A stretch of DNA of 59,210 bases from Candidatus Thorarchaeota archaeon (GCA_048882485.1 JBHLRP010000015.1:8327-67536), one strand, 5' to 3'. Counted from the stretch's first letter, positions 1,652 through 59,210 are shown. The notes: generated by a model from the sequence alone, not told the origin. Numbers and translations are program-made.

Positions 1652-1675
1652 AAAATGAAAAAGAGTGGTCAACAG
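1652..1675 (+). repeat. Dispersed repeat, degenerate core only
   Basis: AAAATGAAAAAGAGTGGTCAACAG vs consensus AAAATGAAAGGGTGCTCAGCA. Confidence 0.5.
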
Positions 1676-1740
1676 GACAGTGTAAATATTCAAGATCATA
1701 TCGGCCTTCGACTTGACCCTTATCGCCTAATTCATACTCC

Positions 1741-3033
1741 CTAAGGGAAAATTCCTCTAAGCTCAATAGCTCGAGCTACTCTTCTGATAGCGAGGGCTAA
1801 CGCGGCTCTTCTTAGGCTTTTCAGATTATATTTCTCAGCTGTTTCATCCACCTCACAGTAGGCACGAATGAGCACCTCACGGAGCCTATCATTGACCTGT
1901 TTTTCATCCCAGAAGAAGTACTGAAGCCCTTGTACCCATTCCAAGTAGGAAACTGTCACTCCGCCGGCATTTGCCAGAATGTCTGGTATCACAGTAATTT
2001 GCCGTTCCTGGAGAATATCATCAGCTTGCGCCGTAGTGGGTCCATTTGCGCCCTCTACAATCATGCTTGCTCCTATGGAATCGGCATTTTCTTTGCTTAT
2101 CACCTCTCCAATTGCGCATGGAGCAAGGACATCCACATCCAAATTGAAGAGCTCCTCATTTGTGAGGGCATCCAATCCTGGGTAGCCTTCAACGGATTTC
2201 CTTGGGTGCTGAGATGCATATTCTAGTATCTTCATCGTATCCAATCCATCGGGGTCATAGACGCCTCCGAATGCATCTGTTATACCCACAATCTTGGCTC
2301 CAGCCTGGCTAGCTGAAAGTGCGAAGTGACTTCCCACATTCCCAAACCCCTGTAGGGCAATAGTGATTCCTTTACATTTTCTCTTTTGCTGGCGAAGAGC
2401 CTCCTGCATGGTATAGAACACTCCTCTTCCAGTAGCTTCAACTCTGCCCACACTTCCTCCAGTTTCTACAGGCTTTCCTGTAACCACACCGAGCTCGGTA
2501 TGACCTTTTATCATTGAATATGTGTCCATAATCCACGCCATCATCTGGGGATTGGTGTTAATATCTGGCGCGGGGATATCTGATTCTGGTCCAATCATAT
2601 TGATTAAACTATAAGTAAAACGCCGAGTCAATTTCCTTAGCTCATCTGATGACAAACTCCAAGGATCACAAACAACGCCCCCTTTCGCACCACCATATGG
2701 AATATTGACGACTGCTGTTTTCCAAGTCATTAGAGCAGCAAGAGCTTTGACTTCATCAAGATTCACATTTGGACTGAATCTGATTCCTCCTTTGCAAGGT
2801 CCCCGATGATGGGAGTGTTGGACTCTATACCCTTCAAACACTTTTACAATGCCATCATCCATCTGAACTGGAATACTAGTGATGAGTATTCTATCTGGCT
2901 TTTCTAGAATACTTAGTATATTACTATCCAATTTGATAATTTCAGCAACATCTCGCAGCTGAGTGAGAACATTATTCCACGGGTTTGTTTCCATCTTTTC
3001 TTGAATTTCTCGATGCATAGACATTATCTCCAT
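1741..3033 (-). CDS. gdhA: Glutamate dehydrogenase (Glu/Leu/Phe/Val family)
   Basis: GPCKGGIRF, MTWKTA, GGAKGG, DIPAPD, TGKP..GGS.GR.EATGRG, GFGNVG, EGANGP, PDILANAGGV. GGAGG RBS before ATG 3033. Confidence 0.95.
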   Translation of the reverse strand: MEIMSMHREIQEKMETNPWNNVLTQLRDVAEIIKLDSNILSILEKPDRILITSIPVQMDDGIVKVFEGYRVQHSHHRGPCKGGIRFSPNVNLDEVKALAALMTWKTAVVNIPYGGAKGGVVCDPWSLSSDELRKLTRRFTYSLINMIGPESDIPAPDINTNPQMMAWIMDTYSMIKGHTELGVVTGKPVETGGSVGRVEATGRGVFYTMQEALRQQKRKCKGITIALQGFGNVGSHFALSASQAGAKIVGITDAFGGVYDPDGLDTMKILEYASQHPRKSVEGYPGLDALTNEELFNLDVDVLAPCAIGEVISKENADSIGASMIVEGANGPTTAQADDILQERQITVIPDILANAGGVTVSYLEWVQGLQYFFWDEKQVNDRLREVLIRAYCEVDETAEKYNLKSLRRAALALAIRRVARAIELRGIFP

Positions 3034-3089
3034 GTTTTTCGACCTCCTATTCCCAACCACGTTTATGGTGATAATCACATGATAATTTG

Positions 3090-3896
3090 CTAATCTATCG
3101 TAATACTCAGAAACAGACTTTCCATATCCTCCACAATTCTATTCGCATCTTCCAGAAAATCCGGTTTACTATCATAGTCCCATTCGCATAGCCAACCTCC
3201 TGACTCTTCCCTCCTCCGTTTACCATTTTGTAATCGAAAACCCATAAAGGCAGGCTTTGGAGAAAGCGACATTCTAAGATTAATCCAATTTGGAAGCGTC
3301 GTGATGAAGTTCATTGTTTGATCGAATGCAACACGGATTGGAAGTGTGGGAGAAGACTTTACATACCACTCGGGAGAAATGCAGTCCTCTAGTGGACCCT
3401 CGTACCAATCTAATTGCAATGTTCGGGCAATCATGCCTGGCCATATTAGAAGTACAAAAGCTAGCTCGGCTTCGCGTTCGTCACAATATCCCCCTCGAGC
3501 TCTTATAGCTAAGGCCGCACAAGGAACCGATTCAGGAATGAGTGCCGCACTCCAATTCCTCAGCATTATCAAGAATGTCTTCCTAGCTTCTATGTAACTC
3601 ATGTTCGATCTGTATTTGTAAAGTGGAAGTTGTACAATTCTTGCCCTTGATGGGAGTCTGCCACAGATCTCATTCCAAAGCTCAGAACTCAAACTATTGA
3701 ATCTTCCAGAATGATCTATTTTTTCTCCCCCCCTAGGTAGTTCAAGGGGAACCGGGTTGTGTGAATCTATCGGGAAATGGCCCGGAATGGTATCAACAAG
3801 TCTGATTTCCTCGTGAATAGCGATATTTGGAAGATCTAGTAGATTCCTAAGACTTCCCCAAACCAAAGATAATCCATAATTCGTCGAGGATTCCAT
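3090..3896 (-). CDS. Hypothetical protein between the two dehydrogenase genes
   Basis: 268-aa ORF starting 5 bp after the upstream dehydrogenase stop, same strand. No family recognised. Confidence 0.7.
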   Translation of the reverse strand: MESSTNYGLSLVWGSLRNLLDLPNIAIHEEIRLVDTIPGHFPIDSHNPVPLELPRGGEKIDHSGRFNSLSSELWNEICGRLPSRARIVQLPLYKYRSNMSYIEARKTFLIMLRNWSAALIPESVPCAALAIRARGGYCDEREAELAFVLLIWPGMIARTLQLDWYEGPLEDCISPEWYVKSSPTLPIRVAFDQTMNFITTLPNWINLRMSLSPKPAFMGFRLQNGKRRREESGGWLCEWDYDSKPDFLEDANRIVEDMESLFLSITID

Positions 3897-3901
3897 TTGG
3901 C

Positions 3902-5110
3902 CTACCTGCCTTCGTATTTTCCTCGCCTTTCCATTGCATCCAGAACTCTTTGTTGAGCAATTTCCTTTGCTATCACTCGTGGACTTAGACCTCTATCTAG
4001 AGCCTGCTCCAATACAAGTCGGGTATTGCTACTAATTTTGGATTCTATCATGGAGAATGCCTCAGCTTCATTTCCCCTCTTGTATTCCACATACGAGCCT
4101 ATGACTCCGCCAGCATTCGCAAGAAAGTCTGGTATGATAATCGCTCCCTTCTTCCATAGCAACTCTTCTGCCCGGGGATTTGTAGCGTTGTTTGCCCCCT
4201 CAATGATATATCTGGCCTTAATCGAGTCATAGGTATTCAGATTTATAACATCCCCCACTGCACATGGAATTAGAATGTCGCAGTCGATACTCAGAATTTC
4301 ATCTCGGGGCAGTATTTGACCAAACCTATAGTTCTTGACAGAGTCTCTTTCTCGTGTTGCATAGGAATGCTTCTCAGCATTCTCGATATCAATCCCATCA
4401 GGATTGTATGTTGTCCCCCAGTAGTCGTTAAGTGCAACTATTTTAGCTCCTTTTGCAGCAAGGTACTTTGCAATTCCCAAACCAACATTACCAAAGCCTT
4501 GGATAACGATCCTGTTCTCAGATAGATCCTCACAGAGACCGAGATGATCACACAGAATTCCAAGTCCGGTTTCTAGAGCAATTCCTACTCCAAATCCGGT
4601 TGTGCCAAGCTCATGGGGGATTCCACCCATCGATGCCGGCTTGCCTGTAGCAGCTTTAAGGTCTCCGACTTCATCAACAAATGCTGCCACCTCATTTTCT
4701 CCAACATTCATATCTGGAGCCGCAATATATTGCGATGGTACAAGAGGCGCTATTTTACTTGCGAATTCTCTGATGAATCTGATTTTGTCGATCTCGAACG
4801 GATTCGCTCTGATTCCGGATTTTGCCCCTCCAAATGGGATGTCTGCAAGTGCACACTTCCAAGTCATAGCTCGTGCCAACCGAAATACTTCCAGAGGAGT
4901 AACTGTAGGAGATATTCGAATGCCCCCTTTGCCAGGTCCAAGAGCCGTATTATCAATGACGAGAACTCCCTGCATTTGAGTTTCCGGATCATAGACTTGG
5001 ATTACTTCCTCTGGCCCCCAAATGTCGAGAAAGGCTGAAACATTAACCTGATTCAAAGCGTCTATTATACCTTCAGCATCGATAACTTCGGTGTCCCTTT
5101 GCACAGACAT
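3902..5110 (-). CDS. Second Glu/Leu/Phe/Val dehydrogenase (divergent GDH paralogue)
   Basis: GPGKGGIR, MTWKCA, GGAKSG, APDMN, TGKP..GGIPHELGTTGFG, GFGNVG, PDFLANAGGV. Start could be GTG 5119. Confidence 0.92.
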   Translation of the reverse strand: MSVQRDTEVIDAEGIIDALNQVNVSAFLDIWGPEEVIQVYDPETQMQGVLVIDNTALGPGKGGIRISPTVTPLEVFRLARAMTWKCALADIPFGGAKSGIRANPFEIDKIRFIREFASKIAPLVPSQYIAAPDMNVGENEVAAFVDEVGDLKAATGKPASMGGIPHELGTTGFGVGIALETGLGILCDHLGLCEDLSENRIVIQGFGNVGLGIAKYLAAKGAKIVALNDYWGTTYNPDGIDIENAEKHSYATRERDSVKNYRFGQILPRDEILSIDCDILIPCAVGDVINLNTYDSIKARYIIEGANNATNPRAEELLWKKGAIIIPDFLANAGGVIGSYVEYKRGNEAEAFSMIESKISSNTRLVLEQALDRGLSPRVIAKEIAQQRVLDAMERRGKYEGR

Positions 5111-5338
5111 CCTTATCACTTGAGTACAGAATGAAAGACATACTATATAGAAAGGACGTAATTGACATGTACAATTGTGCCATCTCTATATAAGACTTAA
5201 CGACATTGGTGCCATAAATGCCTAACTTTGTTCATAAAATCGGTATATTAAAATGTACAAATTTGGCACACTATCAATAGCATTATGCCTTCATAATACA
5301 ATCCCTAGCTGGAATCTAGTTGTTACGAGACTGCCAAA

Positions 5339-6415
5339 ATGACTGATCCACTTAATGACCCGTTGAATGTTGAATTGCTCAAGCTAGTCTGCTCAGGACA
5401 GGGGGTTGAGATTAATGTGAGTGAACTTGCTGAAACTTTCAGAAAACATAGGAACACTATTTCATCACGAATTGATAATATCTTCAGGCATGAAATTGTA
5501 GACAAACCATTTCATCCTTTGCCATTACTGTTCAATCAGTACCCCTTTCTAGTTATTGAAAAATGCGAGTTCCCGCGTGATATTAGAACTAACAAGTGGA
5601 TTGAATTGGATCCTTTCATATGGGCGGCATTCTTCTTTAGAGATGAAGAGTATAATACTCTATTAATCGAACTCCATAAAGACTTGTTTCATTACCAAAC
5701 GTGGAAAGATCGTATTGTTGATGAGGGACTAGTTTCTATCAAGCGAGGTCGTGACTATATACATTCGCAAGCAATCTACGTTGATACAAAGGCGATAGTC
5801 AAATATGACCCTTCATCAAATTTGCATGTAATTAAGGAGAATCAGCGAGAGGGCATTCTTGGAGAAGTAAATGGTCTGGAAATGGACAATACATACCTGA
5901 ACCTTATAGAAGCTCTCCTACGAGGGAGAGGAGTGTGGACTAATCCTAATGCTCTTGCCAAAAGATTAGGGATACACCGCAGAACTGCGCAACGACGCTT
6001 GAAGCTTTTGCTAGATAAGCGAATAATCTCACCAGCAGTGTCTCGATTTCCACGAATTTGGGTACCTCCTCAATACTTCATGGTGCTTTCATTACTCGAA
6101 ATAAAATCACACAAAGAGCAGATTCAAAATGCGCTTTCTGCTGACCCGCATATTTCTTTCTTAGCGAAGACCGTCGCTGATCGCTATAATTACGTCAGCA
6201 TTGCTGGATTCTACAAAGTACGAGACCATCTGAATTGGGAGGAGGAGTATAGCCAGAGGTTCTCAGAATCGCTCGGCGCCGTAAAGAATGTCTATTTATC
6301 GCCCGCTATGACTTTCTCGATTCACCAACAGTTTGTCGCACTCACATACCTGGACCAACTAGCAGACCAGCTACGAGGAAGACAACTACTTAGTAGCATG
6401 AGAGGTCGTGGCTGA
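5339..6415 (+). CDS. Internally duplicated Lrp/AsnC-like transcription regulator (2x HTH + ligand domain)
   Basis: Two HTH-like segments (SELAETFRKHRNTISSRI; NALAKRLGIHRRTAQRRLKLL), each followed by a RAM-like domain. Divergent from the gdh cluster; paralogue of 8480..9523. Confidence 0.75.
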   Translation: MTDPLNDPLNVELLKLVCSGQGVEINVSELAETFRKHRNTISSRIDNIFRHEIVDKPFHPLPLLFNQYPFLVIEKCEFPRDIRTNKWIELDPFIWAAFFFRDEEYNTLLIELHKDLFHYQTWKDRIVDEGLVSIKRGRDYIHSQAIYVDTKAIVKYDPSSNLHVIKENQREGILGEVNGLEMDNTYLNLIEALLRGRGVWTNPNALAKRLGIHRRTAQRRLKLLLDKRIISPAVSRFPRIWVPPQYFMVLSLLEIKSHKEQIQNALSADPHISFLAKTVADRYNYVSIAGFYKVRDHLNWEEEYSQRFSESLGAVKNVYLSPAMTFSIHQQFVALTYLDQLADQLRGRQLLSSMRGRG

Positions 6416-6550
6416 TTCAACATGACTCTCTTGATTTCATGGGTGATTCGGTTTTCAGTTCCAATGAGTGTAAAGACCGTTTATGATCATACAAGAGAGT
6501 TACTCGGGAAACAGGATTTCTCCAAAAATCCCTTTTATTCATTTACCTCA

Positions 6551-9523: not shown

Positions 9524-9643
9524 TGTCCAAAACCCTCTCTATATCCGAATTGATTACTCCATCACAATATTAATTCCATTAACATCAGAAAAAGCCTATG
9601 ATTGATGTGCATTTTTGGATAATATTGGGCTATGATATATCGT

Positions 9644-9955
9644 TCAGTATATAGAAGATTGAAGGTCCACCATCTCTTGAGCAAGCTTACGGGTCTGTGC
9701 TATCATTCTCTCAACTCTTTTATCGCTGATTCTATAGAGTTTCCTGACGCCATCCTTTCGCACTCGTAATATTCCAGCTCTGACCATTTGAGTCAGATAG
9801 GCAGAAACTGTAGATTGAGCCAGACCAATTCGTGGGAATATATCACATTGGCATTGCTCACCGCCCAGGAGAAAGTCAACGATATCTAACCGAACAGGGT
9901 TGCCAAGCGCTTTGTGAAAATCTGCTCTCCATTTATTCGCTTTATTGATGTTCAT
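9644..9955 (-). CDS. arsR: ArsR/SmtB family transcription regulator
   Basis: FHKALGNPVRLDIV, CQCD metal site, LAQSTVSAYL helix, RKDG..KLYRI wing. Downstream of acr3. Confidence 0.9.
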   Translation of the reverse strand: MNINKANKWRADFHKALGNPVRLDIVDFLLGGEQCQCDIFPRIGLAQSTVSAYLTQMVRAGILRVRKDGVRKLYRISDKRVERMIAQTRKLAQEMVDLQSSIY

Positions 9956-11178: not shown

Positions 11179-11200
11179 AAACTGAAAGGACGCTCAGCAG
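11179..11200 (+). repeat. Dispersed repeat, core only
   Basis: AAACTGAAAGGACGCTCAGCAG. Confidence 0.55.
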
Positions 11201-11261
11201 TTCCACACATAGAAGCGTAAATGATGAATCATATTAGTCCGCTTCATGATTTTAATCCAAA

Positions 11262-11920: not shown

Positions 11921-12008
11921 AAAATGAAAAAGTTGCACAACAGTGTGAGAAGGCCATTTCCCCAATTGCTCGATCTCACCGCCGCCTCTACTTCTCTCTA
12001 CCTTAGAA
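11921..12008 (+). repeat. Dispersed repeat, full type A
   Basis: Core + GTGAGAAGGCCATTTCCCCAATTGCTCGATCTCAC + CGCCGCCTCTACTTCTCTCTACCTTAGAA. Confidence 0.9.
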
Positions 12009-12055
12009 TTGATGTCCACGGTTTTCGTGACACGGAGTGCATGAGAAGATTTTTA

Positions 12056-15613: not shown

Positions 15614-15694
15614 AAGATGATCAAAGGTGCACAGGAATGCGGGATAGGTAATCCCCAAAAACACTCTAGCGCCGCCACCTCTGCTTCCCTGCCC
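15614..15694 (+). repeat. Dispersed repeat, degenerate type A
   Basis: AAGATGATCAAAGGTGCACAGGAATG...ATCCCCAAAAACACTCTAGCGCCGCCACCTCTGCTTC. Confidence 0.65.
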
Positions 15695-22559: not shown

Positions 22560-22618
22560 AAAATGAAAGGGCGCTCAGCAGTGTGATAGGGCCAGTTCCC
22601 CAAATGCTCTACTCATAC
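22560..22618 (+). repeat. Dispersed repeat type A (hairpin with compensatory changes)
   Basis: Core + GTGTGATAGGGC...GCTCTACTCATAC. Confidence 0.85.
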
Positions 22619-25157: not shown

Positions 25158-25234
25158 AAACGAAAGGATGATCAGCGGTAGGCAATAGGAAATCCATCAA
25201 ATACTCTATCCTGCCACCTCTACTTTCCTCTACC
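25158..25234 (+). repeat. Dispersed repeat type A, overlapping the stop codon of the DinB-like gene
   Basis: AAACGAAAGGATGATCAGCGG...AATACTCTATCCTGCCACCTCTACTTTCCTCTACC. Confidence 0.7.
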
Positions 25235-25726
25235 CTCCTTTATCCAACGCCGAATCCTACTTTTTGCCCATCGATAATGATTAGCGGAGTTCGCCAGAAT
25301 GTAGCCAGCAATATTCTCAGTCCCAGTCCATTCGTATCTACCGACCTCAAACAAATCCTCTTCAGGGATACCATTGATTGTATCAAGCAACCTCTCGTAG
25401 GATGATCGAAATTCTGCCTTCACATCGTCAAGGGTCCGATTTCGATGTTTTTCAAAGACCTCCTGATTCAAGATGTGCAGTTGGCTCCATTTCAGACCTG
25501 GCGCAGGTGTTTCAGGCACTTCACCTCGGAGTCCTGCTTCGTACCATCCAAGAAATCTCTGCTCCCAGTCAAAGAGATGGGCTATGATGTCCTTCACAGA
25601 CCACTCCGCGATGACACCAGGCACCAACATGTCTTCATCAGAAAGGGGCTCGATGTTCTTTTCTAACCTGCGACGTTCAGTATGGATCCTTTCTATAATG
25701 CTCTCCTTGGTTTTACGCTTCTTCAT
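25220..25726 (-). CDS. ClbS/DfsB (DinB superfamily) four-helix bundle protein
   Basis: WSVKDIIAHL.DWE, P.PG.KW....LN, NSANHYRW. Confidence 0.85.
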   Translation of the reverse strand: MKKRKTKESIIERIHTERRRLEKNIEPLSDEDMLVPGVIAEWSVKDIIAHLFDWEQRFLGWYEAGLRGEVPETPAPGLKWSQLHILNQEVFEKHRNRTLDDVKAEFRSSYERLLDTINGIPEEDLFEVGRYEWTGTENIAGYILANSANHYRWAKSRIRRWIKEGRGK

Positions 25727-25808: not shown

Positions 25809-25888
25809 AAAATGAAAAGGGCGTGCAGCAATGGGCAATCCTCAGTAATCAATCTCATCATCGCCTACACTTCTTTCCACCTTAGAAG
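25809..25888 (+). repeat. Dispersed repeat type A
   Basis: AAAATGAAAAGGGCGTGCAGCAATGGGCAATCC...TCGCCTACACTTCTTTCCACCTTAGAAG. Confidence 0.8.
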
Positions 25889-25988
25889 ACAAAGGTGATC
25901 CATCCGCGGCTTCCGCTACGGATACCTTGTTAAATAGTGAAAGAAATCACAAGCAGAATAGACTCACTTCATATCAGAGGGTCAATAA

Positions 25989-28147: not shown

Positions 28148-28216
28148 AAAATGAAAGGGTGCTCAGCAATGTGAGAAGGGCAGTTCCCCAATGCTCTCTC
28201 TCACCGCCGCCTCTGC
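28148..28216 (+). repeat. Dispersed repeat type A
   Basis: Core + GTGAGAAGGGCAGTTCCCCAATGCTCTCTCTCACCGCCGCCTCT. Confidence 0.92.
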
Positions 28217-28222
28217 ACCCAA

Positions 28223-29656: not shown

Positions 29657-29736
29657 AAAATGAAAGGGGGCTCAGCAATGAGCATTTGGTAATCCCCCAA
29701 TACTCTATCATCGCCGCCTCTACTTCTCTCTATCTT
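29657..29736 (+). repeat. Dispersed repeat type A variant
   Basis: Core + GAGCATTTGGTAATCCCCCAATACTC + TATCATCGCCGCCTCTACTTCTCTCTA. Confidence 0.9.
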
Positions 29737-29930
29737 GAGATCTATTGCTGTTTCTCCATGCAGACATCAAAGCCCCAAGGATCCTGAACCTTGGAGGCCA
29801 ATGTGTATCGTAGTTTCTCGAAAAATCTGATAGCATCAATATCGGGGAGTGGTCCAGATGGAATTATTGGCGGTGTTGTAGGTGGGATTATATTCTCGTC
29901 GAGTTGTAGCAGCTTGGAATATCAGGCGTC

Positions 29931-31508: not shown

Positions 31509-31556
31509 AAAATGAAATGGTGCTCAGCAATGAGTAATTACCCAAATACTCGATTA
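31509..31556 (+). repeat. Dispersed repeat, truncated
   Basis: AAAATGAAATGGTGCTCAGCAATGAGTAATTACCCAAATACTC. Confidence 0.8.
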
Positions 31557-31594
31557 CTCTGACTCCATGATGTAGTCCGCCAAAAACCGAGGAG

Positions 31595-32871: not shown

Positions 32872-32897
32872 AAAATGAAAGGGTGCTCAGCAATGCG
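32872..32897 (+). repeat. Dispersed repeat, perfect core only
   Basis: AAAATGAAAGGGTGCTCAGCAATG. Confidence 0.8.
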
Positions 32898-32992
32898 GAG
32901 AGAACCACCAACTTAAGATGAAAGATGATAGTGCAGGCGCCAACTCTTGTTTCAGTGAACAATCATCGTTCTGGCCCCTATTCCTACTTTGA

Positions 32993-34353: not shown

Positions 34354-34427
34354 AAAATGAGAGGGTGCTCAGCAGGTGGAGAATGGGAAAGTTCCCTGTT
34401 CATCCGACCCCTTCAGCCTCCGCTTCT
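34354..34427 (+). repeat. Dispersed repeat, degenerate
   Basis: AAAATGAGAGGGTGCTCAGCAGGTGGAGAATGGGAAAGTTCCC...GCCTCCGCTTCT. Confidence 0.75.
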
Positions 34428-34458
34428 TGGCCATCTAATCTTGATTTGAATGACTATG

Positions 34459-34686: not shown

Positions 34687-34780
34687 AAAATGAAAGGGTG
34701 CTCAGCAATGTGAGAAGGGCATTTCCCCAATACTCTATCTCACCGCCGCCTACACTTCTCTCTACCTTGGAAGGAAAAGG
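34687..34780 (+). repeat. Dispersed repeat, full type A (near consensus)
   Basis: AAAATGAAAGGGTGCTCAGCAATGTGAGAAGGGCATTTCCCCAATACTCTATCTCACCGCCGCCTACACTTCTCTCTACCTTGGAAGG. Confidence 0.95.
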
Positions 34781-36155: not shown

Positions 36156-36180
36156 AAAATAGAAGCGTGCTCAACAGCAG
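36156..36180 (+). repeat. Dispersed repeat, degenerate core
   Basis: AAAATAGAAGCGTGCTCAACAGCAG. Confidence 0.55.
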
Positions 36181-37151: not shown

Positions 37152-37296
37152 AAAATGAAGAGGGTGCTCAACAGTGTGGGCAGGTAAGGACCATACTCTT
37201 GGCGCGTGGGCAACCTGTCGATTAGAAAGCGTACTCCTATCGTAAGCCAGCATCTCTCTCTGTCAGAGAACGAGCAAGCTGTTTCGCAATTTGAAT
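37152..37296 (+). repeat. Dispersed repeat type B (core + long alternative tail)
   Basis: Core + GGTAAGGACCA...GGCAACCT...AAGCC...CTCTCT...CAAGCTGT, homologous to 56820-56956. Confidence 0.75.
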
Positions 37297-38413: not shown

Positions 38414-38508
38414 AAAATGAAAAGGGTGCTCAGCAATGTGAGAAGGGCATTTCCCCAATACTCTATCTCACCGCCGCCTACACTTCTCATTACCTTAGAA
38501 GGTAAAGG
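38414..38508 (+). repeat. Dispersed repeat, full type A (near consensus)
   Basis: Almost identical to 34687-34780. Confidence 0.95.
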
Positions 38509-39306: not shown

Positions 39307-39383
39307 AAAATGAAAGGGTGCTCAGCAGTGTAAGAAGGGCATTTCCCCAATACTCTATCTCACCGCCGCCTCTACTTCTCTCT
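39307..39383 (+). repeat. Dispersed repeat, full type A
   Basis: Core + GTAAGAAGGGCATTTCCCCAATACTCTATCTCACCGCCGCCTCTACTTCTCTCT. Confidence 0.95.
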
Positions 39384-39727
39384 GATAAATACATCGACCT
39401 TGTTACTGGATTGAACATGTTGAAAACAGGTTTAATCTTCTATCATACTGGAACATGATGTGAGGTTGTCATGTTCGGATTATCTGTTGGTAATCAGAAT
39501 TAGGCCAGGTTAATACTTGTTATCTAGTTAGCCTTTCAAGATACAATTGGATGTGCTCGAATTTCTGAAAAGGTATGCATCATAAGAAGCGATTTATTGT
39601 CAACGGGAAGATAAGTATACGGAATTTGAGATACCGATAGCACGGCTCTCACCTTTATGATCTAGGGAGCCTGTTAATCCACGTATAGGCCGAGTGATGC
39701 AAGACTGTACGCTATGACTGCAAAGGC

Positions 39728-41203
39728 TTGGTCAAAGGAATGGCATTAACAAATCCAACCAATGATAAATTCCCTAAGGCAAGAGAAGCTCTTGAAAGAA
39801 TCTTGGAACAATCGCTGGAAGGCGTCGCCATCATCGGGAAAGACAAAAGAATAGAGTACATTAATGATAGGGCTTGTGAGATCATCGGCCGGACACGGGA
39901 TGAAGTCATTGGTCAATCTTTCCAAGGATTTGTCCATCAGGATAGCTCCGATTTTGTCATTGAGCGTTATGCTAGCAGGCTGAATGGGGAGCTAATTCCT
40001 TCAACTTATGAGGCTCGAGTGCTTTGTGGTGATCATGACGCGAGGGATGTTCGAATCCAGACCACTGTATTGACGAATGGTGAGAGTGAGATCAAGATAC
40101 TGGCACAGCTTATCGACATAACTGAGGAGAAGAGGTTTCAAAGGGCCTTGTCTGAGCGTGAGATGGTATATCATACACTAGTTAAGACCATGAATGAAGG
40201 CATTGGAGTCATTGATGACCATGGTGTCTTTGTACAATCAAATAAGGCTCTAGGCAAAATGCTGGACTATTCGGAAGAAGAAATCATAGGCATGACAACG
40301 GCTGACATCATGCATGGACTTGATGGAGATGCCCTGTCCGACAAGATTAGGGACAGGATAGCTGGCAAATCAGAGCGCTATGAAACGCATCTTATTCACA
40401 GGTCAGGAACACTGATCCCTGCGATGGTATCAGCAGCTCCGATATTCAGCGACTGTGGTGAGTACGCGGGCAGTTGTGTTGTGATTACTGACATCACCAG
40501 ACAGAAAATCATAGAAAGGAATCTCCAGACGGCCAGAAGACGAGCAGAACTGTATCTTGATTTAATGAGACACGATATCCGAAACAACCTTCAAGAGATT
40601 CAAATTTCTGCAGAGCTCTTAGGGCTCAACGTTGACGACTCTTCAGTTCGTGATTTCTTGGAGAATATTCTACGTGCAGTGTCAAAATCTACTACTATCA
40701 TCTCGAATTCGAGGACTATAGATCAGTTGACTGAACTACCGCTGCGTGAAAGGTTACTAGATGAAGTCCTGTGTGAAAGCATGAAGGATGCATCAATACT
40801 CCTCGAGGATGTTGTGATAAGCCTCTCACTTCATGTATCAAATGCGCTAATCAGAGCGGATGACTATCTGGAGCTATTGCTTTCTGATTTGCTCGCAAAT
40901 GCATACTATTGCAATCCTGCAGAGATGAAACGAATCTGGGTTGACCTCGAAGGTGGGGAGAAAGTCTATGAACTCTCCATTAGTGACAATGGGCCGGGAA
41001 TGTCGGACAGTGTTAAACATAGCTTGTTCAATCCTGACTCTCGTATTGAAGGAGTTGATATGCTCCTAGCCCACCACATCGTCGAGAAATACGAGGGAAC
41101 AATCGAGGTTCATGACAGAGTGCCTGATGACCAAGATCAAGGCAAGAAGATTAGGGTGATTTTTCCAAGATTGGACAAGTCAGAGGATTCGGATTATAAA
41201 TGA
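39728..41203 (+). CDS. PAS-PAS sensor histidine kinase
   Basis: Two PAS domains, H-box RHDIRNNL, N-box LL.NA, G1 DNGPGM; G2 box degenerate (EGVDM). Confidence 0.88.
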   Translation: MVKGMALTNPTNDKFPKAREALERILEQSLEGVAIIGKDKRIEYINDRACEIIGRTRDEVIGQSFQGFVHQDSSDFVIERYASRLNGELIPSTYEARVLCGDHDARDVRIQTTVLTNGESEIKILAQLIDITEEKRFQRALSEREMVYHTLVKTMNEGIGVIDDHGVFVQSNKALGKMLDYSEEEIIGMTTADIMHGLDGDALSDKIRDRIAGKSERYETHLIHRSGTLIPAMVSAAPIFSDCGEYAGSCVVITDITRQKIIERNLQTARRRAELYLDLMRHDIRNNLQEIQISAELLGLNVDDSSVRDFLENILRAVSKSTTIISNSRTIDQLTELPLRERLLDEVLCESMKDASILLEDVVISLSLHVSNALIRADDYLELLLSDLLANAYYCNPAEMKRIWVDLEGGEKVYELSISDNGPGMSDSVKHSLFNPDSRIEGVDMLLAHHIVEKYEGTIEVHDRVPDDQDQGKKIRVIFPRLDKSEDSDYK

Positions 41204-41265
41204 GCAATGGGCAATCCCCCAATACTCTATCACCGCCGCCTCTACTTCTCTCTACCATAGAAGGG
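41199..41265 (+). repeat. Dispersed repeat type A lacking the core; supplies the stop codon of the histidine kinase
   Basis: AATGAGCAATGGGCAATCCCCCAATACTCTATCACCGCCGCCTCTACTTCTCTCTACCATAGAAGG. Confidence 0.9.
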
Positions 41266-41390
41266 AAGTAAATCATTGGATTCTTCCTATCTGTGTGGAC
41301 TAGACCAAATCACAGCTCAAGGACAGTGCCTAGTAAAAGGTCAAGATTAGAATGGATTCTGCTTGGACATGACTTCTTTTATGAATACTA

Positions 41391-41921: not shown

Positions 41922-41970
41922 AATGCAGAAAGGGTGCTCAGCAATGTGAGATGGGCATTTCCCCATTACT
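41922..41970 (+). repeat. Dispersed repeat type A, truncated
   Basis: GAAAGGGTGCTCAGCAATGTGAGATGGGCATTTCCCCATTACT. Confidence 0.88.
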
Positions 41971-42519
41971 GCCATGTCAGTATACATCATTCTACATAAG
42001 GGATTGTAGGAGTTGTATTCTGAGAGGAAGTGAACCATTGGTGACAAATGAAGGCAACCCGAGGTCCGACAGCGGCATCCAGCGAGGCTTGCCAACAGCG
42101 GGAGGGCAAGCATATGTCATCAGACGCTATTCTCTATATCTCAATCTGTAAGTCATTCTTACTCATCATCAGTCATTAGGATTCTTTACAGTCCGAAGGT
42201 GCCAGCCCTCACAGTGTCTACAGTGGTATGGCTCCATCATGCCAACCTTACGCATTGTTGCTGCCGCAATCCTAGCCCGTTCCTTATCAGGATAACGTAC
42301 CTTTCGTCTGCACGCCTCCTCTGTATTCTTACCCATGATTCTCTCATATCCTATTGGTCATCTGTTTGATGTATAGATTACCATTGCTAATAGACCGATT
42401 CCTCTTAGATGCCAACTGGATAATCATTGGCGAAGTTGGCGTTGAAGTCATTGTAAACACAATATAATGTATTGATATATCAAGAGGAACCTAATTATAT
42501 CTAGGAGGGCAGTGTTTGA

Positions 42520-54702: not shown

Positions 54703-54720
54703 TGGGAGTAGTGATGGATT

Positions 54721-55065
54721 ATGCTGCGAGTAAAACACGAGCTTGTTAAGGACAAAGATGGAAGAATCATCTATCGAGTCTACACACCTGGAGGACGAAG
54801 ACATTACAACATTCGGTTATTCATAACCGGAGAGCCCCCTGAAGGCCTTACAATTACTAGAGTACAATATCAGCTACATCCGACGTTCAAGAAACAGATT
54901 CGGGAAGGAAACAGTGCGAAGGAATGGGAGGAGTACATCTGGACTTGGGGTATGTTCACTCTCACTGCCAAGATAGAATTCTCAGATGGAAGTGCAAAAG
55001 AAATCAGGTACAGACTTGAGTACGATTTGCCAAAAGATGATGGAGAGAACTACGTTCAGCAGTAG
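54721..55065 (+). CDS. Prokaryotic YEATS (pYEATS) domain protein
   Basis: YNIRLFI...ITRVQYQLHPTF..IR......IWTWGMF.L.AKI.F.DG matches the YEATS V.F.LHPSF...GWG.F signature. Confidence 0.8.
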   Translation: MLRVKHELVKDKDGRIIYRVYTPGGRRHYNIRLFITGEPPEGLTITRVQYQLHPTFKKQIREGNSAKEWEEYIWTWGMFTLTAKIEFSDGSAKEIRYRLEYDLPKDDGENYVQQ

Positions 55066-55473
55066 GAATTGTCGATAACGAAAGCACCCGCGATTCTATA
55101 GATTAGAGTAGGGAATTGCTCAGACAGATAGATCGGGTTTTCTCCTGATGCATTGCTACTGGCAAGCAGAAACTATTAGCATCAGCCTCCCAAGACATAA
55201 TGTACAACCAAGCGCATCCACCCGAATTCCGATTGGATTCTTGATTACAGAAGAGATTTCAAAGCCGAAATTGTCATCACCAAGATACTCTGCCCGCTGG
55301 TTCATTAGAGGAGTGTCTTGCTAATGCCTTGATTGGGTAAGGGTTTTGATGTGTCATGTCATTCTCAACCACATTTTTGTACTCATTGCTCGAAGTAGGG
55401 CTTCCGCTTGAATCCAAATCATATGGAGGGAGAAATGGAACCTCAAGAGCTTCGCGTATGCAAACTGAGAATA

Positions 55474-56601
55474 CTACTTCAATGGCCCCGGTCTAAAGTT
55501 GACTCGAGGAAGCGCGACATTGTTTCTGAATTGTGCCAAATCTGGAAGCTCAAGTCCTTCTGTAGAATAGTCTAGACTGATGCCGAATTCCTCACAGACA
55601 CTATCGATTGTCTTCATTTCCTCCTTTGCTGATTTTCTTATGCCATCAACAGAATAGAGTCCTGGCTCGCTGAATGTGTCTTTGAAGAAAGCGATGACCT
55701 TGCCTTTTGCATCCTTGGGACTTAAAGCGGTTATTAGCCTGTTCAATTCAGAATGGAACTGCTCCAGCCAAGCGAATGACATCGCTTTATACACTAGCAT
55801 CTCTAGAAGGATTTTGTTATTCGTGTGAAATTCAAGTAATTGCGAATCAGTTTCTGATCTTTCCAGTCGTTCTTCAGATTTCTTGGCATAATCATAACAA
55901 AAGGCAGCATAGCCACACAGCCCTCTCTGAAGAGAAACGTGCCCCATATATGTCAGAATTAGCGAAAATCTATTGTCAAAGTAGTAAGCAATCTTCGAAA
56001 CGTAATGAAGGTGATCATCGGAGTAATCATCGTCTCTTGACGTTGCATGATTCTCTGCTTCCAATAGAAATTCCTCTATTGCATATGCAAGGGATGTCAT
56101 ACAAGCAATAGAGTCAAAATCAAGACTGCCATCAGCATCGAGCAAAAGGTCTTCAGAACTCTCCAGAACATGAATGCCCATTAGAGCCATATCACTAAAA
56201 TAGTCAAAAAGCTGGATTCCTAGTTTATCGATATAATTGGTTCGTATTCCAAAATTCCTACTCACAACTGGATATTCTATCTTGAGATCTCGTAGAAGCA
56301 GCATACTCTGGCAATACTCCTCGAAGAACCGCTTTATCTCATCCATATTCTCCGCGTATTCCACGTCGACTACAAGGTTCCTAAGCTGAATGAGATGCTG
56401 AATGCCATCCGTTGCCGCTTTTACATAAGTCTTCAATGTCGAATTATCCTCAGCCATCATCTGCAGTTGATTTATTGTTTCATCTCGAAACTTCGATTCA
56501 TCTCTATCATAGAGCTTCACTTGTCGGTCGAAGCGTTGAACAAAGAAGCTCGCAAGACTACCCAAAGCTCGTCCTAGCATAACCATTTCAGGAAGTGACA
56601 T
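55474..56601 (-). CDS. Hypothetical alpha-helical protein
   Basis: Long ORF (open to 56658), helical composition. No family recognised. Confidence 0.7.
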   Translation of the reverse strand: MSLPEMVMLGRALGSLASFFVQRFDRQVKLYDRDESKFRDETINQLQMMAEDNSTLKTYVKAATDGIQHLIQLRNLVVDVEYAENMDEIKRFFEEYCQSMLLLRDLKIEYPVVSRNFGIRTNYIDKLGIQLFDYFSDMALMGIHVLESSEDLLLDADGSLDFDSIACMTSLAYAIEEFLLEAENHATSRDDDYSDDHLHYVSKIAYYFDNRFSLILTYMGHVSLQRGLCGYAAFCYDYAKKSEERLERSETDSQLLEFHTNNKILLEMLVYKAMSFAWLEQFHSELNRLITALSPKDAKGKVIAFFKDTFSEPGLYSVDGIRKSAKEEMKTIDSVCEEFGISLDYSTEGLELPDLAQFRNNVALPRVNFRPGPLK

Positions 56602-56730
56602 ATTACTACCCCAATTGCTCAACCTAGAAAACGGCGTGTTCGGTGTTGCATCTCTCAATAACCAGTCTTTTTTCGATTTATATAAACTCCGCTAAGCCTG
56701 ATTGAAATGACCTTTTACTTCATTATGAAG

Positions 56731-56826
56731 ACTGCTTTCAATCAAGCATCAATATTCACAATTGCATCGAATACAGCTAGGATGTAAACCAACTGAAACC
56801 TGTAAAAATGTCAGATGTCAAAATGA
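56731..56826 (+). repeat. Diverged duplicate of 11832-11927 (3' end of membrane-protein gene plus spacer up to the repeat core)
   Basis: 96-bp ungapped alignment with 12 mismatches counted by eye, all transitions. Confidence 0.92.
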
Positions 56827-56956
56827 GAATACGCTCAGTGGCATGAGCAAGGGTAAGACCAACTTGGTGTTAGGCAACCTAACCGATTGCACTGCGCTCC
56901 CCATCTTAAGCCTAGACCTCTCTGCCCGAAGACAGAACAAGCTGTCGGGATACGAA
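56820..56956 (+). repeat. Dispersed repeat type B
   Basis: AAAATGAGAATACGCTCAGTGGCATGAGCAAGGGTAAGACCAA...TTAGGCAACCT...AAGCC...CTCTCT...CAAGCTGT. Confidence 0.7.
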
Positions 56957-57179: not shown

Positions 57180-57395
57180 ATGGTCGATAAACCAGACACT
57201 CAAACAGTTAATATCGTGGTAAATGGGAACGATGATTTGCTTGTTGAGGAGTTAAAGAGCAAATTGGCGAAGTATGTAATTACCGTTGAAACATATCATG
57301 ATTCATCGGTTGATTCTCCTGTTCTTGTAACATCGAAAGGGATATTTCAATCTAAAACAGGCCTTGATTGTTTCCTAAGGATTGTGTCAGAGTAA
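57180..57395 (+). CDS. Small glutaredoxin-fold-like protein lacking CxxC
   Basis: PVLVTSKGIFQS..GL..F resembles the Grx cis-Pro/GG region. GAGGG RBS; coupled to the next gene. Confidence 0.5.
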   Translation: MVDKPDTQTVNIVVNGNDDLLVEELKSKLAKYVITVETYHDSSVDSPVLVTSKGIFQSKTGLDCFLRIVSE

Positions 57396-57431
57396 GATTA
57401 TTCCCTGTTTTGCTATTGCAGAGGGGTTGCT

Positions 57432-58970
57432 ATGGCAGAAACACGCTTGTATCTGCTTACAGGTCAAACGGGCGTAGAGCATGGTGATGTTGGTAATGCT
57501 GTATGCAAGGCGGCTGAAGAGGCAAGAAAGGAAGAACCAAATGTACCCACCTTGAGCTGGTTTGACATTAAAAAGGGATTTGAGGAGGCAGGATATCCAT
57601 CTTCAGCGGTTCCGGCGCTTTGGGAAAATCCAAGCCCGGCAAAGAAGAGAGGAGCATGGATTGCGGCGTATAATGCGATATTAGATGAAATTCATGAGCG
57701 CTCTTTGGATATAGCTCTTCTATCCATGCACATGTTATGGTATCGTGGTTACAATTTCTTTTGTCCTGTGGATTTCCCTACCGTAGAGAATGGAAGAATA
57801 AAACCCATTGGAATTGTGACCCAAATAGATGATCTTTACGATATATGGACAAGAATAAGGGAAAGAAAAGACAGACCGGGATCCTTCAATATTGATGTGG
57901 ATTTCTCTTTAAGTGAATTGGGAATTTGGAGAGGACTTGAGGTGCTGATGTCTGAGAAATTAGCAGAGTTTCTCCATGACCAGAGAAGAGGATTTCATTA
58001 TGTTTGGGCTGTAAAACACCCACCTGAAATGCTATGGAAACTAGTTTCAGATCCAAGTCAGTTAACTGTATATTCTGCTTTTCCTATTTCAAGAACACGT
58101 AACTGTGAGGACGCAGTTGATGCAATTAATGAGTTTAGGCAGAAACTCTATGATGAGTTCATTGTTTTTGATCCTTTGACTATTGATGAATACCCCATCA
58201 GAGCCAAACTTGTGGAATATTGGGTAGAGCATATTAGAAATGATTTGAAGACAACCTGCGATATCAATTCTGATAATCTTGAGATCGATTTTCATCCCAT
58301 AGGCAAAAAGTGTACAATTCATCATAAGGAGTTTGACATTCAATCTGGATGTATAAGATCAAATAAAGCAAAGATCAAGCTCGGAGATGATTGTGTCTTC
58401 ACTCTTCCTGAAGAAATCAGTTTACCTAAGAGGGGAGAGATGTGTTTCGATAGGTCACTTCGTTGGGCGCTCTACCCATCGAGTTCTGAATTCTCATACA
58501 AGTCCGCTGTAGATGGGGAGAATGAACCAGTTGTTGTACCGTTCTGGGAGGTTGATGAGGCAACCAAGCAAATTGTCAGTCAAATACGTGTTCGAGATTT
58601 CCAATTAATTGAAAGAAGTGATGCGATAATCGCATTTAGACCAAGCTTTCAGAAAACGAAAATCTCTGATGGAGTAACAAAAGAAATCACATTTGCCAAA
58701 GAACTGATACAATGGATGCTCTATAAGTTGGAATGGGCAGTGATATGGGATAAAGAGGATGGAGAAATAGCAACATCAGCCGCAGTCTTGGGCTCCGAAG
58801 CTTCATCGCTTTATGAACAAATACCATGCTATTCAACTGTGGATGAGTGCATTAAAGCTTTCAAAGAAATACAGCAACGAAAGAAGGATTTCTTTAGAGA
58901 TTCTACAGATCCCGGAAAGCTTAGAGATAAGCTGATCGAGTGGTACAAAGCCAGAATAGCAATAAGCTGA
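57432..58970 (+). CDS. P-loop nucleotide-kinase-like domain fused to a nucleoside 2-deoxyribosyltransferase-like (NDT/Rcl) domain
   Basis: N-terminal LLTGQTGV...H....R; C-terminal VYSAFPIS, FDP..IDE, RDFQLIERSDAIIAF, SDGVTKEI.FA (NDT SxG..xE motif). Confidence 0.65.
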   Translation: MAETRLYLLTGQTGVEHGDVGNAVCKAAEEARKEEPNVPTLSWFDIKKGFEEAGYPSSAVPALWENPSPAKKRGAWIAAYNAILDEIHERSLDIALLSMHMLWYRGYNFFCPVDFPTVENGRIKPIGIVTQIDDLYDIWTRIRERKDRPGSFNIDVDFSLSELGIWRGLEVLMSEKLAEFLHDQRRGFHYVWAVKHPPEMLWKLVSDPSQLTVYSAFPISRTRNCEDAVDAINEFRQKLYDEFIVFDPLTIDEYPIRAKLVEYWVEHIRNDLKTTCDINSDNLEIDFHPIGKKCTIHHKEFDIQSGCIRSNKAKIKLGDDCVFTLPEEISLPKRGEMCFDRSLRWALYPSSSEFSYKSAVDGENEPVVVPFWEVDEATKQIVSQIRVRDFQLIERSDAIIAFRPSFQKTKISDGVTKEITFAKELIQWMLYKLEWAVIWDKEDGEIATSAAVLGSEASSLYEQIPCYSTVDECIKAFKEIQQRKKDFFRDSTDPGKLRDKLIEWYKARIAIS

Positions 58971-59125
58971 TTGAATGAAGCCGATTATATCATGACCCTG
59001 TAATAATGCATCTAGCTGAATATTTGCCCGAACTGAAAGTAGACATTGATGAACTCGTTCGGCACGAAAGAACGCACGAAAGGTTCCTCGAATACAGAAA
59101 CAGCTGACCAATTATGAAAATATGG

Positions 59126-59210
59126 AAAAATGAAAAGGGTGCTCAGCAGCATGAGCCAGGGCAAGTGCCAATGGCGTTAGGGAATCTAGTTCCTTTCACA
59201 ACCCTATCCC
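59126..59210 (+). repeat. Dispersed repeat type B (runs to window end)
   Basis: AAAAATGAAAAGGGTGCTCAGCAGCATGAGCCAGGGCAAGTGCCAATGGCGTTAGGGAATCTA; tail resembles the 56820 copy. Confidence 0.8.

Follow-up and report, generated by a model that had tools for sequence, protein, structure and literature searches.

A one-directional repeat marks the joints of exchangeable gene blocks at a single Thorarchaeota locus, in an integron-like layout

A polar repeat was found to mark the joints between swappable gene blocks in a Candidatus Thorarchaeota archaeon (Asgard), in a layout resembling that of an integron, and no cutting-and-joining enzyme was found. The window, i.e., the whole stretch of DNA that was analysed, comprises 59,210 nt on contig C15 of a 3.96-Mb assembly (90.5% complete; G000 below). 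On balance, and with modest confidence, the repeat is read as the joint of a chromosomal gene-cassette array, or repeat-punctuated additive flexible island, with recombination taking place at the repeat's core.

Twenty-one copies were identified in the window by combining hits of an nhmmer profile with weak copies and a degenerate copy at 1652, and all of them lie on the + strand (Table 1); the decayed relic listed there is additional to these. The approximately 21 co-oriented copies reported in the initial annotation were thereby borne out. Searching with the 21-mer given there yielded 11 matches in the window at up to 3 mismatches, all on the + strand (expected from 100 shuffles: 0), 15 on the + strand and 0 on the − strand at up to 5 mismatches, and 16 versus 3 when 6 mismatches were allowed, the three minus-strand matches having 6 mismatches apiece and no further similarity. 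The profile gave 17 hits on the + strand and 0 on the − strand at E ≤ 0.01. A sensitive search for minus-strand copies, named in the initial annotation as the way to refute the polarity, was performed with nhmmer (--max, E ≤ 10); it added weak + copies at 11180, 36157, and 56820 and returned two minus-strand matches in the window, with E-values of 0.5 and 1.7. Across loci, 80 of 81 profile hits were co-oriented within their own locus, and arrays on metagenome contigs were likewise unidirectional (L075, 8 copies; L076, 6; L080, 7). As a separate observation, the 99 nt preceding copy 56820 duplicate positions 11832–11930 (87% identical).

Table 1 Copies of the repeat in the window, with position, strand, and context or supporting search
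Feature	Position	Strand	Context or support
Degenerate core-only copy	1652..1675	+	Upstream of 5' end of small gene 1368–1640 (−); G000/G005 homology of block A stops at 1675
Decayed relic, ~50-nt internal deletion	9632..9668 (approximate)	+	Joint before ArsR-SBF block; G011 and G004 have full copies there, to which the relic was aligned
Core-only copy, 3 mismatches	11179..11202	+	21-mer; profile E 0.037; block B ends at 11169
Full copy, core + arm (model 1–88)	11922..12010	+	Ahead of CdhA-paralogue block
Copy, model 8–77	15623..15692	+	Between CdhA block and MtdB-like/Mvh/Hdr block
Copy, model 1–54	22560..22613	+	Other end of MtdB-like/Mvh/Hdr block
Copy, model 2–82	25158..25236	+	After MFS gene; left end of DinB/DUF1706 cassette missing in G011
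Copy, model 2–88	25811..25889	+	Ahead of DUF1801 cassette; arm variant common to G005 and G011 orthologues
Copy, model 1–74	28148..28221	+	Block E ends within its core
Full copy, model 1–87	29657..29741	+	Core-only form at same joint in contigs of two other runs
Copy, model 1–62	31509..31564	+	Ahead of block G
Core-only copy	32872..32898	+	Same M24-peptidase cassette in G011 has full arm
Copy, model 1–74, divergent arm type	34354..34428	+	21-mer, profile, alignment
Full copy, model 1–89	34687..34775	+	21-mer, profile
Weak core-only copy, 4 mismatches	36157..36177	+	Profile E 3.5
Copy, model 1–50	37153..37199	+	Profile, relaxed 21-mer
Full copy, model 1–90	38415..38504	+	21-mer, profile
Copy, model 1–79	39307..39385	+	21-mer, profile
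Arm-only copy, model 21–90; sole window copy without left core	41199..41266	+	Profile
Copy, model 6–85	41923..42001	+	Profile, relaxed 21-mer
Weak copy	56820..56857	+	Profile E 4.6
Copy, model 1–43, at contig end	59128..59171	+	21-mer, profile

The site consists of a nearly invariant core of ~25 nt at its left end and an arm of ~70 nt, the latter made up of a variable middle, which differs by subfamily in the alignment, and a conserved far box. Among the 81 profile hits of eight genomes, the left end (model position ≤ 9) was retained in 77 and the right end (model position ≥ 80) in 43, with the left end alone kept in 37 copies and the right end alone in 3. The earlier description of a kept left end and a variable right end thus holds, part of the apparent right-end truncation being, according to the alignment, a divergent variable middle and not loss. 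No consensus hairpin was obtained with RNAalifold (−0.95 kcal/mol, 3 pairs), and single strands folded with DNA parameters no better than shuffles (mean z −0.35 for the − strand and −0.25 for the + strand; z < −2 in 9% and 6% of copies, respectively). Rfam returned 0 matches across the window at the gathering threshold and nothing on copies 38415 and 39307 at E ≤ 1. A structured RNA gene family was rejected for want of a conserved secondary structure and of any Rfam match.

Searches of the whole assembly with nhmmer placed 15–16 matches on C15, all on the + strand, and all others on the small contigs C124 and C143. With the 21-mer at up to 4 mismatches, 13 matches were on C15 and 3 on C124/C143; three more elsewhere in the assembly had 4 mismatches each, the reversed-pattern control giving 1. 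In relatives assembled as single contigs, the repeat occurs at one locus per genome, where every copy has the same strand. This local confinement to C15, C124, and C143 had not been noticed in the initial annotation. Since the repeat is confined to one locus and is not genome-wide, a test of its orientation against replichores is moot. Matches were present in 14 of 16 genomes of the same genus (at least 3 matches in 11 of them), in 20 of 24 genomes of the family, and, as a weak match, in 1 of 16 genomes from other families of the phylum; in other genera they covered positions 1–36 only, i.e., the core was kept and the arms were not.

Gene blocks between the repeats, of 1 to 9 genes each, are permuted, inserted, or missing among close relatives. 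At 91–96% nucleotide identity, the order is A-B-C-D-E-F-G in G000 and A-C-E-G-B, without D and F, at the G005 locus, and in this comparison each of the 9 internal block ends has a repeat start no more than 150 nt away. When all cross-genome pairs were taken together, a repeat was present at ≤ 150 nt from 89 of 149 alignment ends, with repeats and 150-nt margins amounting to about one tenth of the DNA (our estimate and not a computed figure). Filled and empty sites could be compared directly, as the initial annotation had suggested: both G000 and G005 have the DinB/DUF1706 cassette, which is missing in G011, where the joint is a single site. Two cassettes at 28166–31574 are missing from the G005 joint. 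Core-only sites of 19–27 nt also mark block ends, and the same joint may carry a full, core-only, or replaced arm in different relatives; “truncated” copies occupy the same cassette joints as full copies with the recombining core kept. Arm variants are cassette-specific and common to orthologous cassettes across genomes, without being homogenised among cassettes, and the cores are alike everywhere.

All genomes are metagenome-derived bins, repeats in such assemblies can cause misjoins, and the repeat frequently forms a contig end (C15, C143), all of which would suit apparent shuffling produced by assemblers misjoining contigs at the repeat. Such an artefact is nevertheless considered very improbable. 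The same alternative joints recur across assemblies (A-C in both G005 and G011), and arrays are present in single-contig assemblies. Several joints of the G000 order are bridged by contigs of another study's run (X3 record 9, spanning 22434–26276; record 12, 31299–33194; record 16, 39354–41287). Furthermore, stretches at least 95% identical between different copies reach ~43 nt.

Three origins had been proposed initially, and two of them are already contradicted. A non-autonomous IS200/IS605-type single-stranded DNA transposon (PATE/REP-like), with a strand bias set by replication, would explain the single strand and the one fixed end of all copies, but is extremely unlikely given that the copies are confined to one locus in draft as well as single-contig genomes, are not spread across replichores, have ends without (subterminal) hairpins or folding above that of shuffles, and coincide precisely with the limits of blocks moving as units; the Y1 transposase family (PF01797) had 0 matches in G000, with control matches in 6 of 14 genomes. 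Reverse transcription of an RNA whose 3' end is U-rich would yield copies with, as seen for the repeat on the − strand, a fixed 3' end that is T-rich at its terminus and a varying 5' extent. This explanation is given next to no probability: PF00078 (RVT_1) had 0 matches in G000, the copies are not dispersed, mid-site variation follows subfamily and not truncation, and full, core-only, or replaced arms at one joint are unlike dead-on-arrival retrocopies. The third origin, serial site-specific integration that duplicates an att site, fits best and is partly supported, since blocks are inserted, missing, or permuted among relatives and homology breaks in the left core; no integrase was found, however, and recombination at short homologies may account for these features instead.

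The position of these breaks was determined within the site. The core (~25 nt) stays with the upstream block, and the arm (~70 nt) is inherited with the downstream (right-hand) block. For 7 pairs sharing the left neighbour alone, homology ended at site positions −14, 21, 22–24, 24, 27, 80, and 95, i.e., in 4 of 7 at 21–27 although the arms provide 70 more nt of 70–95% similarity. For 13 pairs sharing the right neighbour alone, it began at positions 2–9 in 8, at 30–41 in 2, and past the arm in 3. In two of the 7 pairs sharing the left neighbour alone, homology continues into the arm, which counts against the cassette-array reading. The G005 joint between blocks E and G, which consists of core positions 1–19, then 4 nt, then block G without its G000 arm, is not a clean core-to-core product, as the arm is absent and 4 nt lie between core and block, and likewise counts against that reading.

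Under the cassette-array reading, a block would exit as a circle bearing core and arm and would re-enter at any core via one reciprocal, Campbell-type exchange, each such exchange duplicating the core in direct orientation; this duplication would account for the absolute polarity as well as for the restriction to a single locus. On the − strand, such a cassette would run from gene(s) through arm to core and be exchanged at the site's far end, an arrangement shared with integron cassettes. A core-only copy would be a joint at which the block to the right either lacked an arm from the outset or has since lost it. Most likely, the exchange would be site-specific and carried out either by a member of an unrecognised enzyme family or by an enzyme that is encoded elsewhere. 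In G000, neither PF00589 (tyrosine recombinase) nor PF00239 (serine recombinase) was matched (0 matches each); among 15 relatives of the same genus, just 3 had PF00589, in no case on an array contig. When ORFs from ten arrays (five genomes, five metagenome contigs) were scanned with Pfam, no recombinase or integrase was found, these scans being partial (window, 57 of 74 ORFs; G041, 43 of 64; L023, 15 of 21; L022, 8 of 17).

The failure to find a site-specific recombinase, either in the genome or near an array, counts against the cassette-array reading and would suit plain homologous recombination with no dedicated enzyme, i.e., RadA-type exchange of resident copies with one another or with incoming DNA. 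The repeat would then be a conserved intergenic element with another job (terminator, insulator, or protein-binding site), and polarity would persist because exchange between direct copies leaves them direct. The homologies that end within the arm (positions 80 and 95) and the untidy E-G joint of G005 point the same way, as does the conservation of the core, but not the arms, past the genus, which would also suit a function other than recombination. This alternative is nonetheless thought rather unlikely, as plain exchange would not be expected to stop at 21–27 ahead of a similar arm, to leave cassette-specific arm variants unhomogenised across genomes, or to mark block ends even at core-only sites of 19–27 nt; for an element with another job, there is moreover no conserved terminator-like or RNA fold and no Rfam match.

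The cargo identified in the Pfam scans (PIN/VapB, ParE, HicA/B, GNAT, DinB, metal ATPase, MFS, and regulators) is typical accessory content. The commonest protein clusters are cargo, and none is common to more than 7 of 21 source labels. The independence from gene orientation described initially stands only in part: of the neighbour genes on the arm side, 50 of 74 have the strand opposite to that of the repeat, as do 44 of 70 on the core side. The arm-side bias, only about 2:1, sits less easily with the cassette-array reading. Gene 3' ends lie close to the sites (arm side, median 31 nt; core side, 45 nt), and 5' ends leave ~110–125 nt. Blocks reach 9.4 kb and carry operons. Unlike most integron cassettes, they have room for their own promoters, which speaks against the cassette-array reading. 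ARAGORN found 0 tRNAs in the window and none at 11 of 12 loci; the sole one, a tRNA-Phe, lies ~8 kb from the G004 array, and none adjoins any of the 13 scanned sources. No gene end matching the repeat was found.

An ordinary integron cassette array without integrase (CALIN), with the repeats as attC sites, is suggested by the direct-repeat array, the mostly single-gene cassettes, the toxin–antitoxin (TA) and GNAT cargo, and a crossover that, in the − strand reading, falls at the site's far end. The R''/R' boxes of attC sites have the form RYYYAAC ... GTTRRRY. An enrichment of integrons in Asgard archaea, mostly as CALINs, is reported by Ghaly et al. 2022 (PMC9668308), whose Data S1 lists two Thorarchaeia genomes with only 2 attCs each; the repeat motif is not in the attC list of Data S9, a list of only ~10 sequences that says little. 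Paired R boxes were present in 0 of 54 full copies of the repeat on either strand, and a loose AAC/GTT test was passed by just 4 of 54. Together with single strands that fold no better than shuffles, the lack of a consensus hairpin, and no tyrosine recombinase found in G000 or on array contigs, this makes a CALIN highly doubtful, even though CALINs lack IntI by definition and its absence alone does not exclude one. The repeat sites are not canonical attC sites.

Several known systems resemble the array. In tandem accretion (CIMEs), serial integration at one att site leaves direct att repeats between unrelated modules, which can be mobilised in trans; the likeness lies in the direct att-like repeats between unrelated modules at one site, but CIMEs go back to elements that had an integrase at that site, and their arrays have few modules compared with 20 or more here. 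The pdif modules of Acinetobacter plasmids are likewise gene modules bounded by short recombination sites, namely 28-bp Xer sites of alternating orientation with XerC/D encoded elsewhere, whereas the sites described here are all direct and no Xer-like gene was detected in most genomes of the genus. With integron arrays and CALINs, including archaeal ones (PMC9668308), the array shares accessory cassettes at one locus separated by direct-oriented sites, a site that is part of a single cassette, is exchanged at the far end, and has cassette-specific variants, a cargo rich in TA systems and acetyltransferases, and cassettes reordered, gained, and lost among close relatives. It differs in that no IntI or other tyrosine recombinase, R-box consensus, or single-strand hairpin was found, and in its 2:1 orientation bias only, its long blocks with operons, and its promoter room. 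Additive flexible genomic islands, as described by Lopez-Perez and Rodriguez-Valera 2016 (PMC4898812), lie mostly at tRNA or tmRNA genes, have a repeat that is part of the gene, and usually carry integrases, whereas the Thorarchaeota array has no adjoining tRNA (13 sources), no gene-end match, and no integrase that was found. Same-genus strains differ there as here in cassette number and order, a direct repeat marks the additions, and near-identical cassettes occur in different species. The hallmark of such islands, i.e., strain-variable cassette content and order at one locus with direct-repeat punctuation, was found in the array.

The repeats form an array at one locus, a series of direct sites at which gene blocks are gained, lost and permuted; the breaks lie in the core of the site, and each arm is tied to the block on its right. 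The 21-mer of the initial annotation matched the window 11 times at up to 3 mismatches, always on the + strand (0 expected from shuffles). At up to 5 mismatches, 15 + and 0 − matches were obtained, and at 6 mismatches 16 and 3, each − match having 6 mismatches. Starting from six long copies, a profile was built and refined iteratively on relatives; its search of the window (E ≤ 0.01) returned 17 copies, all on +. With all filters off, 3 extra weak + copies were recovered, the only − matches being two with E-values of 0.5 and 1.7. Together with one degenerate copy (see table), these make 21 copies, in line with the ~21 counted by eye in the initial annotation, and the absolute polarity claimed there is real, as the sensitive search of the window gave no comparable set of minus-strand copies. 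The truncation of the right end alone was likewise recovered: of 81 profile matches from 8 genomes, 77 retain the left end and 43 the right (left end alone in 37, right end alone in 3).

The full unit of ~95 nt is three-part. Alignment of 54 full copies showed an almost invariant left core of ~25 nt, a variable middle with several subfamilies (some with insertions of 25–30 nt), and a conserved far box; middle and far box are here called the arm (~70 nt). Core-only copies are true joints: the cassette with the M24 peptidase has a full arm in the relative G011, and in the source genome (G000) the core is followed by unrelated sequence of similar length; block G has its arm in the source genome and lacks it in the close relative G005; and the joint at position 29657 appears in core-only form in contigs of two other sequencing runs (X6/X7; sides 72 and 62 nt). 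A direct duplication of 99 nt (87% identical) was also observed in the window, running from the 3′ end of a 211-aa gene through the spacer into the beginning of a core; in its second copy at 56.7 kb only the tail of that gene is left, ahead of a weak core copy.

Between 25 and 42 kb of the window, a copy stands beside almost every gene, and elsewhere copies delimit blocks of up to 9 genes. The same blocks recur in relatives at 85–99% protein identity, their order differing. For G005, nucleotide identity to the source genome was 91–96% across the common blocks, the block order was A-C-E-G-B, and 9/9 internal block ends fell no more than 150 nt from where a repeat starts. Block D adjoins block C in the source genome and G011, and block G in another relative, G009. 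Full repeats flank the ArsR-SBF pair in G004 and G011; in the source genome and G005 the pair is bounded by a relic instead. In a filled-versus-empty comparison, the DinB/DUF1706 cassette lay between two sites in the source genome and G005, and G011 had a single site and no cassette. Across all cross-genome alignments of at least 400 nt, 89 of 149 internal ends were at most 150 nt from the start of a repeat, several of the others being mere cuts between fetched loci. The left-flank genes of the source array (MFS, CorA, zf-PARP protein, DUF308) sit between repeats inside the array of the metagenome contig L080.

Features of the array and of related loci; coordinates refer to the window unless a locus (L) or a genome and contig (G, C) is named
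Feature	Location	Strand	Remark
Degenerate copy	1652	+	brings window total to 21
Decayed relic copy	~9632–9668		
Block A	1–1675		common to G000 and G005
Block B	1740–11169		common to G000 and G005
Block C	11928–15610		common to G000 and G005
Block D	15610–22710		MtdB-like/Mvh/Hdr operon; absent at G005 locus
Block E	22710–28166		common to G000 and G005
Block F	28166–31574		absent at G005 locus
Block G	31574–32895		common to G000 and G005
211-aa gene	11262–11897		3′ end within 99-nt duplication
99-nt direct duplication	11832–11930 and 56731–56829		
CdhA	12362–14704	+	second copy
Stretch with no detectable copy	42100–56800		~14.7 kb
Inverted copy	L024:15862–15924	−	
Arrestin-like protein	L080:16802–17626	+	metagenome array
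zf-PARP tandem paralogues	L034:3591–4343 and L034:5789–6253	+	C15, upstream of window
HNH endonuclease gene	L027:3770–4318; G009:C4:40463–41005	−	two genomes (G012, G009)

Every genome compared is a metagenome assembly. Misassembly is nevertheless disfavoured, since the alternative joints recur across different assemblies and contigs from a different study's run bridge several joints of the source genome. Most repeat–repeat “joints” in Logan contigs had sides of 24–44 nt, were likely repeat artefacts, and were left out; the Logan evidence used comprises the X6/X7 contigs and the bridging records only.

For every site, the surrounding 900 nt were cut out and compared across genomes. Where only the left neighbour was in common (7 pairs), homology stopped at site positions −14, 21, 22–24, 24, 27, 80, and 95. 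Where only the right neighbour was in common (13 pairs), homology began at positions 2–9 in 8, at 30–41 in 2, and past the arm in 3, one partner in each of these 3 being armless. These positions indicate that the arm stays attached to the block on its right through inheritance and that the core is the segment where partners switch. Orthologous cassettes retain their own arm variant across genomes and cores are alike everywhere, which speaks against exchange being frequent within the arms. The E-G joint of G005 is untidy, consisting of core positions 1–19, four letters, and block G without its arm. On the − strand, each unit reads gene(s)–arm–core, and the exchange takes place at the site's far end. 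About two thirds of the neighbouring genes lie on the strand opposite to the repeat (50/74 on the arm side, 44/70 on the core side); gene 3′ ends lie close, at a median of 31 and 45 nt from the sites, respectively, and gene 5′ ends ~110–125 nt away.

A block might leave as a circle carrying core and arm, and such a circle could re-enter at any core through one reciprocal exchange. The exchange would duplicate the core in direct orientation, from which strict polarity and locality would follow; loss or replacement of the arm would leave core-only joints. We lean towards a site-specific exchange, performed by an enzyme acting in trans or belonging to an unrecognised family, as breaks cluster at positions 21–27, arms are cassette-specific, and the core is conserved beyond the genus. 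Short-homology recombination at a conserved element, favoured by the absence of any recombinase, is the less likely alternative.

In the source assembly (3.96 Mb, 157 contigs, 90.5% complete), profile matches were confined to C15, the contig that contains the window, and the scraps C124 and C143; the 21-mer at up to 4 mismatches gave the same distribution plus three 4-mismatch matches elsewhere (reversed-pattern control: 1). Of 16 same-genus genomes, 14 have the repeat (at least 3 matches in 11 of them), as do 20 of the 24 family genomes, several of these with one weak match only; the 16 genomes from other families of the phylum yielded 1 weak match. In every genome the copies were grouped on one to a few contigs, those of a cluster sharing a strand (80/81 agreeing). 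The sole inverted copy is diverged, lacks the left core, and sits in G011, 1.6 kb past the array's final co-oriented copy. Two single-contig assemblies have one locus each (6 and 10–14 kb) with every copy on the same strand, and the metagenome contigs L075, L076, and L080 carry 8, 6, and 7 co-oriented copies, respectively. The initial annotation had proposed comparing orientation with replichores, on the premise of a dispersed element; this premise is wrong, as the repeat is local, with one locus per single-contig assembly, and the comparison is therefore not applicable. Two of the origins proposed there, i.e., IS200/IS605-like ssDNA transposition and RT-mediated copying, are contradicted by the copies not being dispersed and by the source genome lacking Y1 transposase and RVT_1, respectively. 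The longer parent element with an ORF that it had suggested looking for was not present among the 81 copies.

Pattern scans of public collections gave matches in Thorarchaeota/Promethearchaeota-labelled MAGs and ~7 single matches in bacterial MAGs, 5 of the latter without a surrounding profile match and 1 with a weak one; by our estimate, these ~7 fall within chance for an 18-mer in 596 Gb. Within the window, the stretch with no detectable copy holds many ORFs without a Pfam family, and tblastn of its ORFs against the fetched array loci of relatives gave no match.

The site fails all tests for integron attC, tRNA-anchored islands, and ssDNA transposons, and no known recombinase was found. The attC site is marked by paired R boxes, and this motif was used as the criterion: paired R boxes were seen in 0/54 full copies, and a loose AAC/GTT test was passed by 4/54. 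Folding of the copies as single-stranded DNA was no better than that of shuffles (mean z −0.35 and −0.25). An RNA gene was rejected, as Rfam gave no match and RNAalifold detected no consensus fold among the copies; single copies folded on the − strand reached z-scores of −0.5 to −1.9 only. A tRNA anchor was not found at the loci scanned.

Neither PF00589 nor PF00239 was matched in the source genome at its 90.5% completeness. PF00589 is present in 3 of 15 same-genus relatives, in none of them on the array contig, and in the single-contig assembly of G004 its only match lies ~80 kb from the array. Its gap in the source genome and 12 of the 15 relatives (62–92% complete) would cover XerA too, which is unusual for archaea unless due to incompleteness. 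Partial Pfam scans of the ORFs of ten arrays (covering 57/74 ORFs in the window, 43/64 in G041, 15/21 in L023, and 8/17 in L022 where partial) revealed no recurring recombinase, transposase, or nuclease, and a PHROGs scan of 33 unexplained ORFs gave HNH, Lar-like, and helicase-like matches only. Clustering of 437 ORFs from 31 loci yielded clusters spanning at most 7 of 21 source labels, some of which may stand for the same organism, and no array-wide family beyond cargo, the commonest clusters being GNAT, ParE, MFS, and PIN.

Two candidate enzymes were rejected. The zf-PARP protein (~250 aa, ending in a zf-PARP DNA-nick-sensor finger at the C-terminus, its N-terminal part without known family) is encoded beside or in the arrays of G000, G005, G011, G041, and L080; its presence does not follow the repeat, being absent (E ≤ 1e-10) from the array-bearing G004, G009, and G012 and present in the arrayless G013 and G014. 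In G012 and G009, exactly 109 nt separate the HNH endonuclease gene from the array's first repeat; of 17 genus genomes only 4 have the gene, and on contig C115 of the source genome no repeat adjoins it. The failed tests for known systems and the lack of a recombinase point to an undescribed recombination enzyme or to unusually disciplined short-homology recombination.

The arrays carry PIN/VapB, ParE, HicAB, GNAT acetyltransferases, DinB, a metal ATPase, transporters, and regulators, which is the usual content of cassette arrays; the genes HTH_10, Mpt_N, CdhA, and MvhD identify the organism as an archaeon. The CdhA of the array (CO dehydrogenase alpha, Prismane family) has no other cdh genes alongside, and its paralogue on contig C28 is 83.6% identical over 779 aa. 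In the array of L080, a block between two repeats encodes an arrestin-like protein (Arrestin_N + Arrestin_C), a eukaryote-signature fold carried in a flexible region. Tentatively, the locus may be a gene-capture platform of the Thorarchaeaceae, integron-like without integron parts, which would combine a double-stranded core-plus-arm site, neither attC-like nor tRNA-derived, with a recombinase of unrecognised family or a host enzyme in trans, and would carry single accessory genes as well as whole energy-metabolism modules (the CdhA paralogue, the MtdB-like/Mvh/Hdr operon). Most genomes of the genus show no tyrosine or serine recombinase.

The array represents a well-resolved case of a defined DNA site at which members of one genus have reshuffled blocks of accessory and metabolic genes, with ~20 joints per genome and conservation across a family. 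For annotation, it matters that such arrays break assemblies and are probably missed by present integron finders. A literature search, covering sources other than bioRxiv supplements, found no published description of this repeat, and the aloposons and other Asgard elements in the sections covered of Wu et al. 2022 (PMC8813620) are unrelated to it. In the sections covered of Ghaly et al. (PMC9668308), only two Thorarchaeia genomes are listed, with two attCs each, in a set that may not include this genus; two 11-nt core motifs were absent from their Data S1–S10, a weak test as only ~10 attC sequences are given there. As far as the covered sections describe them, integron cassette arrays (PMC9668308) share the layout and behaviour of the present array, which differs in having neither IntI nor attC; the additive flexible islands of marine bacteria, as portrayed in part of PMC4898812, likewise share both, the present array differing by the lack of a tRNA anchor and an integrase. 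What this array contributes to the comparison is its size, its two-part site, and clear junction evidence.
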